A stretch of 64,000 nucleotides of DNA from positions 2,168 through 66,167 of the forward strand of contig JAFUTN010000022.1 of assembly GCA_017484225.1 (NCBI GenBank), in the 5' to 3' direction. The notes beneath the pieces are model-generated. The model was not told the DNA's origin. It searched no databases and worked only from the letters and a program-made list of their open reading frames with translations. A program made the translations under genes and the position numbers. The stretch comes from Alphaproteobacteria bacterium (lineage in GTDB: Bacteria > Pseudomonadota > Alphaproteobacteria > RF32 > CAG-239). Shown here piece after piece: positions 6,999 through 9,059 of this stretch (within the stretch, counting starts at the first letter, position 1; the number at the start of each line of letters is the position of its first letter).

Positions 6999-9059
6999 TC
7001 AAAATCTGACAACCTTATGCGTTGCCAAAACTTTCATAATTTTATCAACTTTTTGTGCTTTCATTTGTTTATCCAATTTTTTATAAGCACCTTTTACCTT
7101 AAATGCGTCTGGATGTTTAAGGCAATCACGCGCCAACGCATTTATTTTACCATTGTTTAAAAGTTCTTCTTTCTTGGTAAAATCAAAACCGTTGTATATA
7201 ATAGCACGAACAATTTTTTCGTATTGAGCGCCTTCTAAATGATTAACTTTATCCCAATCAACTTGCTGTATATCAATACCTTTTCTGACAACTTTATCAA
7301 TCTTCTCAGCACTAGTAAAGATATTCACATCATTATCACGTGCAATTTGTGCTTGTCTTCTTTCTTCTTCTTCTATTTTTTCTCTATTGGATACAAATTG
7401 ATACAATTTTTCGTATGCCATATATACTCTAAAATTATCAGGAAAAGTCAAACATTCATCAACAGTTTCCCGAACAATATCCTTATTGAAAGTCGAAATC
7501 GCATCGCTAAAATCATATCCATTGTATATGATAGCCTGCATTATTCTTATATCTTCTTTGGTGCCCTCATCATATCTTTCGTGTACATAGAATTGATTGA
7601 TAAGCTCCTCCCAATCTATCCATTGTATATCCGCACCATTGTCAACACATTCATTTATTTTTTCTGCAGATGAAAAGGAATTTATACCGCTACCTGCTAT
7701 AATACGTTGTCTTTCAAGGTATTCTTCTTCCTTTTTTTGTTCTAAGAGTCTCGCCTGTTTTTCTTGTTCCAACGCCAATTTATAATCTTCATTACGCTGA
7801 TCAAGATATTCACGGGCAATAGGTACAATACTCTGCAAACTTTCATATGCACCTTCAACTTTAAATGCCTTAGGATGTTGTAAACATTCTTCAGCTAGAG
7901 GTAAAACTTTACTATGGCACAATACTGATAAGGCTTGGCTAAAGTCATAACCATTATATATGATTGCTCGCATTACCTTTTTATATTTTCCATTGTTCTT
8001 ATATGATAAGTATTTCAAATTAGACCAATCTATTTGTTGAATATCTACACCTTTTTTAACTAATTTATCTATTTTTGTGGCAGATAAATCATAAGTATTA
8101 TCCAAATGGTAATTTATATCATTCTCTCTTTGCTCTTTTTTTTGTTGCTCTTTTTCTTTTCTTTGTTGAGCTTGAATCTTGGGTAATTCCTTATAATATT
8201 TGTCATTTTCTCTTACTATAGCTCTAATTGTGGTGCGTATTTCTGGTGTTTTAAATCCTTCTGGGTGCGCAAGACAATAATTTACTTCATGTCTTACATC
8301 TTTCTTATGCAATATGTCTGGATTATATGAAAAATCATATCCGTTGTATATTACAGCTCTGATAATTGGAGTATATTGACGTTGATTTCTAACAAATAAA
8401 TCATATAGCTCATTCCATTTTACAGATTGGATATCAACTCCATTTTTAATCAATCTATCTATTTTTTCTGCACTTTCAAAGACATTTATATCATTATTAA
8501 GTATTTCTTTTTTTGAAGCCTTCTCCTGTGCTATAATTTGCGGTAATTCTACTCGCAGATATTTATCAATATCTCTAACAGTGTGTCTTGCATCAATTCG
8601 CATTTTTGTTGTTTTAAATCCTTCTGGATGTGCAAGACAATAATCCACGACACGACGAACTTCTCTTCGTTGAACCAAATCTTTGTCCAATTTGTAACCA
8701 TTATAAATAACTGCTTGAGCTACAGGTCTGTATTTAGATGCGTTTGAGTGTATTGCCTTTATCAATTTGTTCCAGTCAACGGTTTGAATATCTGCCCCTT
8801 GCCCCACAAGTGTATCAATTTTATCTGGAGTTTCAAATTCGTTTATATCACCTTTTTTGATTTCTGTATCAAGCCATTTACTTTCTTCATAATCTTGACG
8901 TTTTCTTTGGCTCTCTACTTCTTTTGATAGAAAGTGTAGTTCTTGCACAGAAAGTCCTTTGATCTTTTTGGCTAATGCATTTATTTTATCTTGCACATCT
9001 TGCTCCATAACACACCTCCTATGTTTTAATTTATCACAAATTTTGTCTAAATATAACAT
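6999..9059 (-). CDS. hypothetical protein with five ~110-145-aa internal repeats; likely start 9008
   Basis: Motif IN.F.SA.KID..V..G.DIQ.(V/I)DW..L...RA(I/V)IYNGYDF...CL.HP..FK recurs five times. Confidence 0.85.
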   Translation of the reverse strand: MLYLDKICDKLKHRRCVMEQDVQDKINALAKKIKGLSVQELHFLSKEVESQRKRQDYEESKWLDTEIKKGDINEFETPDKIDTLVGQGADIQTVDWNKLIKAIHSNASKYRPVAQAVIYNGYKLDKDLVQRREVRRVVDYCLAHPEGFKTTKMRIDARHTVRDIDKYLRVELPQIIAQEKASKKEILNNDINVFESAEKIDRLIKNGVDIQSVKWNELYDLFVRNQRQYTPIIRAVIYNGYDFSYNPDILHKKDVRHEVNYCLAHPEGFKTPEIRTTIRAIVRENDKYYKELPKIQAQQRKEKEQQKKEQRENDINYHLDNTYDLSATKIDKLVKKGVDIQQIDWSNLKYLSYKNNGKYKKVMRAIIYNGYDFSQALSVLCHSKVLPLAEECLQHPKAFKVEGAYESLQSIVPIAREYLDQRNEDYKLALEQEKQARLLEQKKEEEYLERQRIIAGSGINSFSSAEKINECVDNGADIQWIDWEELINQFYVHERYDEGTKEDIRIMQAIIYNGYDFSDAISTFNKDIVRETVDECLTFPDNFRVYMAYEKLYQFVSNREKIEEEERRQAQIARDNDVNIFTSAEKIDKVVRKGIDIQQVDWDKVNHLEGAQYEKIVRAIIYNGFDFTKKEELLNNGKINALARDCLKHPDAFKVKGAYKKLDKQMKAQKVDKIMKVLATHKVVRF

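Follow-up and report, generated by a model that had tools for sequence, protein, structure and literature searches.

A protein of five repeated all-helical modules with an ankyrin-like first half from a gut alphaproteobacterium

Introduction

Ankyrin repeats (Pfam clan Ank: PF00023, PF12796 and PF13637) are helix pairs followed by loops of the pattern G-x-D-hydrophobic-polar, and they commonly form protein-binding surfaces. VHS, ENTH and CID domains are small, right-handed, all-helical alpha-alpha superhelices that bind short peptide motifs in a groove; they are eukaryotic and comprise eight helices in approx. 140 amino acids (aa). Spectrin-type proteins, based on the spectrin repeat or, in bacteria, represented by EzrA, form elongated modular rods from repeats of approx. 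106-120 aa in which the last helix runs toward the next unit. A further small helical domain is Effector-associated domain 2 (PF19956), a Death-like adaptor domain found in conflict systems. Here, we describe a gene whose product recalls features of these families. It lies on the minus strand at positions 6999-9008 of a 64,000-nucleotide stretch (hereafter, the window) of contig JAFUTN010000022.1 from the genome of an Alphaproteobacteria bacterium (assembly GCA_017484225.1). The encoded protein is modular, all-helical and non-membrane, carries five like domains set apart by long helical spacers, and is horizontally carried.

The gene and its five modules

The gene is a 2-kb open reading frame (ORF) inside DNA of 32% G+C (GC) content, with its stop codon at 6999-7001. 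The uninterrupted ORF spans 6999-9059 and counts 686 codons from the first in-frame ATG, at 9059; however, the true start is probably the ATG at 9008, which yields 669 aa, because the sequence AGGAGG (9015-9020) lies 6 nucleotides (nt) before it, the homologue P0003 begins at the equivalent methionine (M18 of the 686-aa reading), and the NCBI and ENA sources record the 669-aa form. A promoter-like site at 9050-9078 on the minus strand (TTGACT, 17 nt, TG-TATATT) lies just upstream of the 9008 start, within the putative longer reading frame; it would place the 5' end of a transcript near 9043, but it is a consensus match only, and sites of this kind are no more frequent in the region than chance predicts. 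That the gene is real follows from the length of its ORF at so low a GC content, the Shine-Dalgarno site, homologues that carry the same motifs, near-identical strain variants, and its recurrence in several gut metagenomes and in metatranscriptome contigs (see below).

A first-pass annotation, made from the sequence of the window, had read five copies of one module in this gene, and all five indeed lie in the one intact ORF. The three motif sets that it named each occur five times, in the same order and in register: G[AVI]DIQ at aa 88, 207, 337, 475 and 594, IYNG[YF] at aa 118, 237, 367, 511 and 621, and CL.[HF]P at aa 141, 262, 392, 536 and 646 (686-aa numbering). The period between modules is 119-144 aa and the module itself is approx. 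110 aa long. In the five-module alignment, modules 2-5 are 31-50% identical to module 1, and at 16 columns the same residue stands in all five (K, I, G, D, I, Q, W, A, I, Y, N, G, C, L, P and F). Chance likeness is excluded because module-against-module blastp comparisons give E values of 4e-16 to 2e-35 and because a profile of any four modules recovers the fifth at E values of 7e-27 to 6e-36, the database size being set to the 7,375 ORFs of the genome. In an alignment of 14 modules, overall identity is 20-50%, Cys78 is invariant (14/14) and His81 is present in 12 of the 14. Comparison of the module with itself by hhalign detected no internal repeat, including no 33-aa repeat.

All modules are encoded on the minus strand, and their limits are given here in the 686-aa reading. 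Module 1 (8544-8864; aa 66-172) has YNGYKL as its second loop, as had been stated before, and module 2 (8181-8507; aa 185-293) is 47-50% identical to it, depending on the alignment. Module 3 (7791-8117; aa 315-423) was the one modelled alone. Module 4 (7359-7703; aa 453-567) diverges furthest and is the most acidic (net charge -13); it carries an insertion of 6 aa and TFP in place of HP, and its model confidence is the lowest of the five. Module 5 (7029-7346; aa 572-677) is followed by a basic C-terminal helix; the last 29 aa carry a net charge of +7, and this basic tail is kept in P0003. Upstream of module 1 lies an N-terminal region of approx. 50 aa (8859-9008, minus strand), hydrophilic and composed of two helices, which is conserved in P0003. 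Since the N-terminus is hydrophilic, no signal peptide is apparent on reading, in agreement with the earlier annotation. The isoelectric point of the whole protein is 7.6.

Predicted structure

An AlphaFold2 model of module 3, computed with an alignment of six homologous modules, has a predicted local distance difference test (pLDDT) score of 86.9 and a predicted template modelling (pTM) score of 0.81. It contains six helices (residues 13-21, 31-40, 42-54, 63-66, 71-79 and 90-108), and the module is accordingly predicted to be a compact six-helix alpha-alpha superhelix of approx. 85-90 aa that runs into a charged helix. In the full-length model (mean pLDDT 73.6, pTM 0.31), the individual beads are well modelled except for module 4 (pLDDT approx. 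50-58), and the last helix of each bead extends as a linker helix of 33-53 residues. The longest of these inter-module helices is encoded at 7692-7850 (residues 387-439 of the 669-aa form) and the others at 8499-8609, 8124-8246 and 7335-7433 (residues 134-170, 255-295 and 526-558), all on the minus strand. The linkers, which had been described from the sequence as charged and helical, consist to 44-63% of K, R, D, E and Q and are modelled as long helices; in particular, the charged stretch of linker 2 is almost without hydrophobic positions. The low global score fits beads that do not pack on one another, and we infer that its combination with good local confidence is what would be expected of independent beads on flexible or stiff spacers.

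Weak resemblance to ankyrin repeats

In the first-pass annotation, the period and most motifs had been judged not to agree with the 33-aa ankyrin repeat. No ankyrin hidden Markov model (HMM) matches the protein, but the judgement calls for some qualification: in most modules, the GxDIQ and NGYDF loops lie 33 residues apart, and ankyrin profile matches are found in this register that are weak but exceed a shuffle control. From the glycine of GxDIQ to that of NGYDF, the distance is 33 residues in most of the 14 modules (30, 32 and 39 in three of them), and in modules 3 and 5 a glycine closes the third loop another 33 residues on. In the model of module 3, helix pairs occur at residues 31-40/42-54 and 63-66/71-79; the loops G[AVI]DIQ and G[YF]DF[ST] resemble GADVN of ankyrin repeats, and the whole module superposes on about three such repeats.

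Profile comparisons repeatedly return a weak ankyrin signal for the first half of the module. When the five-module profile was run against 60 related genomes, its sole non-self matches were ankyrin proteins, over columns 11-58, and its best matches among PDB sequences were designed ankyrin proteins (consensus-type by reading; E value 0.017, columns 13-62). An hhalign comparison with a same-genus ankyrin protein gave a probability of 89% over 47 columns. Two-repeat units from the ankyrin genes of the genome itself were then used as a comparison alignment, against which the 14-module alignment scored 21.5 (P value 1e-3, probability 21%) with GxDIQ...IYNGYDF placed on GADVN...GADVN. None of 150 column-shuffled ankyrin alignments reached this score (mean 9.2, standard deviation 2.1, maximum 21.3), and the reversed alignment scored 9.6. 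Moreover, approx. nine of the top 50 rows of the VIA structure comparison are ankyrin entries (Z 4.3-5.5; root-mean-square deviation 3.0-3.8 Å over 74-94 residues), the best geometry being that of 7kb2_B and 7ubz_A (3.0 Å over 94 of 109 residues).

A number of results speak against membership in the ankyrin family. The signal is weak and confined to the first half of the module; the C-terminal half scores 8.7 against the ankyrin alignment, a background value. The Pfam ankyrin HMMs match neither the whole protein (E value up to 1), nor its homologues, nor any of 11 modules scanned singly (E value up to 5). Conversely, the 14-module HMM does not pick up a single ankyrin protein when run against the genome, even at an E value of 10, and the matches to PDB ankyrins are lost with a broader profile. 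The Z scores of the ankyrin entries do not surpass those of the VHS/CID and HEAT/ARM proteins and are such as any helical repeat would be expected to give. A scan of the whole genome with Ank_2 (PF12796) gave 21 matches, which fall in at least six other genes and leave the five-module ORF unmatched, and Foldseek returned no ankyrin entry below an E value of 0.7. There are also differences in the build of the unit: the TPLH motif of ankyrin repeats is absent from all modules and has DW..L in its place, the third loop reads CLxHPxxF, and the duplicated unit is a closed module of approx. 110 aa that ends in a long helix rather than a stacked 33-aa solenoid repeat. Considering the weak but register-consistent matches together with the absent HMM matches and the missing TPLH, we therefore regard the module as ankyrin-like in its first half but not a member of the ankyrin family as currently defined. 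It may have derived from an ankyrin pair.

Canonical ankyrin genes are also present in this organism. One lies within the window at 62373-62639 (C22:64540-64806, plus strand), in a 154-aa frame with an Ank_2 match of 53 bits. The genome (1.48 Mb) encodes at least six canonical ankyrin-repeat genes, including one on contig C1 for an 879-aa protein with approx. 13 double repeats.

Searches for a known family or fold

The suggestion that the module is a possibly new repeat domain gained support from family and structure searches. No Pfam family matches the whole protein or its homologues, and none is shared by the 11 modules scanned singly; the weak Pfam families that appear are each matched by one member only. 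Given this result and the lack of an Ank_2 match in the ORF, the modules do not fall into a known Pfam family such as ankyrin; a match of that kind is what the first-pass annotation had named as contradicting novelty. Likewise, the five-module protein has no match among NCBIfam-style families, nor in the PADLOC and PHROG libraries at an E value of up to 0.01. The confident six-helix model was compared by Foldseek, as had been proposed, with no convincing neighbour (best E value 0.72 in PDB and 0.74 in BFVD), and the ESM Atlas gave no usable match. Searches of phage and plasmid records with tblastn gave no match, a pattern scan of IMG/VR revealed no relative, and the motif IYNGYDF was without a match in a full-text literature search.

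In the VIA comparison, which covers 48,161 representative chains, nothing stands out: the best row is a fragment of Nup120 (Z 6.0), and according to the guidance of VIA itself, a helical-repeat Z under 8 to 13 may mean a common arrangement only. The top rows are all alpha-alpha superhelices, namely CID/VHS domains, HEAT/ARM proteins and the ankyrin entries mentioned above. The CID and VHS domains are of similar size and also all-helical, and the individual rows are the Seb1 CID (Z 5.6), the Pcf11 CID (5.4), the STAM2 VHS (5.3) and the Rtt103 CID (5.2), superposed over 81-101 residues with Z scores that are within the background range for helical models. Unlike the module, these domains have eight helices, and the module shows no sequence signal to them.

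Two further comparisons concern Effector-associated domain 2 and spectrin-type rods. In two family members, PF19956 is found below threshold at corresponding positions of the module (16.2 and 18.3 bits, against a gathering score of 23.8), and the five-module gene adjoins a candidate defence gene for a nucleoside triphosphatase. However, PF19956 is matched by none of the 11 singly scanned modules, and no Death-fold protein occurs among the 50 VIA rows listed. Spectrin-type rods resemble the five-module protein in repeat length and in the way that the last helix of a unit continues toward the next. Spectrin units are three-helix bundles, whereas the module described here has six helices and a spacer, and no spectrin-type protein is among the Foldseek and VIA matches listed.

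Relatives, rarity and change of copy number

An exhaustive phmmer scan of 1.84 billion representatives yielded five real clusters, the query protein among them. The other four are P0003 (406 aa) and P0004 (374 aa), with three modules each, and P0005 (232 aa) and P0006 (195 aa), with one module each. The further hits P0007 and P0008 were rejected as low-complexity repeat artefacts by reading. In a set of 5.8 billion clusters, word-indexed searches with the protein and a nine-module profile (the 'near' and 'longer' length classes) detected no new member. Scans of contigs revealed one locus in genomes (L010, which is the gene of P0004) and one in metagenomes (L011). L010 belongs to a metagenome-assembled genome (MAG) from yak rumen, labelled 'Alphaproteobacteria bacterium', and lies beside two Hsp20-like genes (named by reading). 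L011, a partial gene, has a single module preceded by a different N-terminal region, of approx. 180 aa. Upstream of this fusion gene, at a distance of approx. 2 kb, the same contig (63-4454, plus strand) encodes a 1,463-aa helical-repeat protein without a Pfam match, which, by reading, contains a Cys/His-rich region and an acetyltransferase-like C-terminus.

Because the module occurs singly in P0005 and P0006 and in a fusion in L011, it is an autonomous domain. It is also very rare: among species-representative genomes, it was found in none of the 49 others in the genus and in one of the 282 others in the order (two of 283 with the source genome), the sole other genome being the L010 MAG, which is of the same family as the source.

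The three-module proteins align to the window modules in order, with types 1/2, 3 and 5. In module 1 of P0003, the N-terminal half shows 81% identity with window module 1 (53% with module 2), and the C-terminal half shows 62% identity with window module 2 (41% with module 1). This module is a chimera, of the kind that an in-register crossover at the IYNGY motif would produce; for modules 3 and 4, the corresponding comparison was ambiguous. Copy number probably changes through in-register recombination at the conserved motifs, and five, three and one copies are seen.

Proposed role of the five-module protein

The protein can be pictured as beads on a rod: a short helical N-terminus would be followed by five six-helix domains, each spaced by a charged helix of 33-53 residues. 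Between two G-x-D-hydrophobic-polar loops, the first half of the domain would retain the arrangement of a single ankyrin repeat, and the rest would have diverged beyond recognition or be of other origin. One conserved loop face (GxDIQ..DW, IYNGYDF and CLxHPxxF) would be presented by every bead to the same kind of ligand, and the linker helices would set the spacing, at approx. 5-8 nm per linker if straight. The gene is carried by a decayed island at a tRNA-Asp gene (see below).

On this basis, we give about even chances to the view that the protein is a multivalent binder or scaffold that holds five copies of the same kind of ligand at distances set by its spacers, because ankyrin, VHS/CID and ARM superhelices work as binding surfaces and because the motifs are kept in five copies. 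This view is open to objection, as binding, ligand and location are all putative; moreover, most of the conserved residues (I26, W31, Y54, G56, C78, L79 and F85) are hydrophobic or glycine, and all of them could be structural, which would leave no conserved ligand site. A more far-reaching version, which we hold to be rather doubtful, is that the module represents a binding domain that is both new and autonomous, related to ankyrin at most as an ancient offshoot, and that its loop face serves one specific ligand; in that case the five-bead protein would be a ruler or avidity device that is exchanged on small islands among rare gut Alphaproteobacteria and possibly engages repeating sites of a host, a protist or a phage.

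If the binder or scaffold view is true, an unrecognised domain family, with a confidently predicted fold and without a close solved relative, would be added to the helical-repeat binders. Like beads on stiff charged spacers are suited to studies of avidity and spacing, and the family provides a clear case from nature of in-register recombination altering the number of repeats. The host group comprises small-genome, uncultured gut and rumen Alphaproteobacteria that are rich in ankyrin proteins, and a target of the protein would offer a clue to how these bacteria live in the gut. In practical terms the protein is of modest weight, as the family is very rare and has no tie to a phenotype.

The tRNA-Asp island and its other genes

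The gene had been placed in AT-rich island cargo, and the base composition bears this out: GC content is 0.31-0.33 across 6001-10000, compared with approx. 0.38-0.40 in most of the window. The island is small, decayed and horizontally acquired. Its insertion site is a tRNA-Asp(GTC) gene (5063-5139, plus strand), and its approx. 5.6 kb are bounded by 30-bp direct repeats that are 100% identical, the left one (5124-5153, plus strand) consisting of the tRNA-Asp 3' end and the following bases and the right one (10761-10790, plus strand) marking the far end. A decayed third copy of the repeat (83% identity) is found at 5384-5413. It falls within 5372-5441, a decayed copy (86%) of the tRNA-Asp 3' end and its hairpin, located 260 nt after the first, which may be a scar left when another element inserted here, either earlier or in tandem. 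Just outside the right repeat lies a 283-aa ORF (10821-11672, minus strand) with no Pfam or NCBIfam match.

Four ORFs lie between the direct repeats: a 93-aa ORF, an HD gene, the repeat gene and a divergent ATPase gene. The 93-aa ORF (5558-5839, plus strand) has a match to DUF6538 that is below the cut-off (E value 7e-4); as domains of this family sit at the N-termini of integrases, the ORF is probably an N-terminal remnant of the island integrase. The HD phosphohydrolase gene (6239-6979, minus strand) starts 19 nt after the stop codon of the repeat gene and has its own GGAGA ribosome-binding site. Its product is a stand-alone protein of the type of the C-terminal HD domain of multifunctional CCA-adding enzymes. 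Most relatives match only through full-length CCA enzymes (approx. 410-430 aa, approx. 40% identity), and neither of the two enzymes with a PolyA_pol head in this genome (417 and 392 aa) matches the HD query at an E value of up to 1e-10. Orthologues with 77-78% identity occur in two same-genus genomes (L036, 1474-2229; L037, 1480-2217), where they lie beside unrelated genes and without the repeat protein; a 59% orthologue in another genus is again in a different neighbourhood.

The AAA_14/DUF4143 ATPase gene (9327-10577, plus strand) is divergently transcribed, and its product matches the PADLOC model PDC-S01 at an E value of 1.5e-141. Among single candidate defence loci, PDC-S01 is the one found most often in rumen genomes (PMC13356809). 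Since HD orthologues occur without the repeat protein, and since L010 lies beside Hsp20-like genes instead, the repeat protein does not appear to be functionally tied to its HD or ATPase neighbours. A role of the repeat protein as a scaffold for the HD enzyme was likewise rejected, the two genes occurring independently in relatives. In one sequencing run (X16), a contig that is probably of DNA joins 5262 to 9228 and skips 3,965 nt, so that the integrase stump is missing along with the HD and repeat genes; with only 31 nt on its shorter side, it is a weak hint of a strain whose island keeps the ATPase only.

Habitat and expression traces

Half or more of the sampled words of the repeat gene are held by 13 sequencing runs, among them gut metagenomes of goat, pig, cattle and sheep; one run is labelled skin, one is unlabelled, and three are possibly the source sample. 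The stretch with the repeat gene, or part of it, is found in 20 runs from 15 studies, and the recorded protein variants differ at one to seven of 669 positions.

Contigs with near-identical pieces of the repeat gene occur in three metatranscriptome studies: X17 (8132-8285, 8518-8672 and 8753-9013), X18 (7921-8334) and X19 (7811-8074). Another X17 contig, of 812 nt, spans 6286-7097 and thus bridges the HD gene and the repeat gene. Within the island, the RNA-library contigs leave the ATPase gene and 5308-6123 uncovered. These contigs are compatible with transcription of the repeat gene and with its co-transcription with the HD gene, a reading tempered by the fact that RNA libraries can hold DNA and that the runs were selected via the repeat gene itself. 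Taken as they stand, the traces indicate an accessory gene that is probably transcribed in an uncultured livestock-gut alphaproteobacterium.

Alternative explanations

Apart from a multivalent binder or scaffold with ankyrin-like modules, three other explanations deserve attention. The module might be a new helical domain unrelated to ankyrin, with a convergent G-x-D likeness, and serve some purpose other than protein binding, such as metal or cofactor binding, catalysis through the invariant cysteine and the nearby histidine, or poly-immunity against several toxins. The retention of Cys78 and His81 at such low overall identity, the lack of an outstanding structural neighbour and the absence of an ankyrin signal in the C-terminal half are in keeping with this idea, as are two of the ankyrin-type VIA rows, which are a type VI secretion system (T6SS) toxin/immunity entry and a related E. 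cloacae protein (7ubz and 7kb2). However, one cysteine and one histidine three residues apart make no known catalytic or metal site alone, an enzyme domain is not usually repeated five times in tandem, none of the family members seen (L010 and L011) has a toxin gene as its neighbour, and the register-consistent ankyrin matches exceed the shuffle control; we thus consider this explanation quite improbable. Even less probability, the least of all those discussed here, is given to an anti-phage or conflict cassette in which the repeat protein senses or sequesters an invader protein or nucleic-acid end together with the HD hydrolase, the PDC-S01 ATPase or both. Such a cassette would account for the presence of the three cargo genes between the island repeats, the strong PDC-S01 match of the ATPase, the HD gene 19 nt downstream, the RNA-library contig that bridges it and the repeat gene, and the sub-threshold matches to Effector-associated domain 2 in two family members. 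Yet PDC-S01 is a single-gene candidate and the repeat protein itself matches no PADLOC or PHROG model. The HD gene is found in two same-genus genomes in unrelated contexts without the repeat protein, neither it nor the ATPase gene lies beside L010 or L011 (the L010 contig ends 346 bp downstream), and none of the 11 singly scanned modules matches Effector-associated domain 2.

An unlikely, though somewhat better placed, explanation is that the protein is a secreted effector, for instance of a type IV secretion system, whose ankyrin-like beads bind a eukaryotic target in gut protists or animal cells. The genome has its set of canonical ankyrin-repeat genes and a VirB4-type ATPase gene that adjoins type IVb pilus genes, and the gene is located on a horizontally acquired island. 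Moreover, basic C-terminal tails are typical of VirB/D4 substrates, and the last 29 residues of the five-module protein form such a tail, which is conserved in P0003. On the other hand, no signal peptide is seen on reading, no eukaryotic or pathogen homologues appear among the 1.8 billion representatives, and the domain is present in only two of 283 species genomes of the order and is therefore not part of a conserved host-interaction toolkit. The secretion locus, too, looks as much like an IncI/MPF-I conjugation set as like an effector translocator. A link to a T6SS was rejected, as no TssC was found in the genome, which is 96% complete. At the type IV locus (L031, C24:19000-38999), the VirB4-like ATPase gene (809 aa) is flanked by large ORFs without a family match and by TcpQ, secretin and PilO genes, by which it is a putative IncI/MPF-I-like or Dot/Icm-like type IV secretion or conjugation locus.

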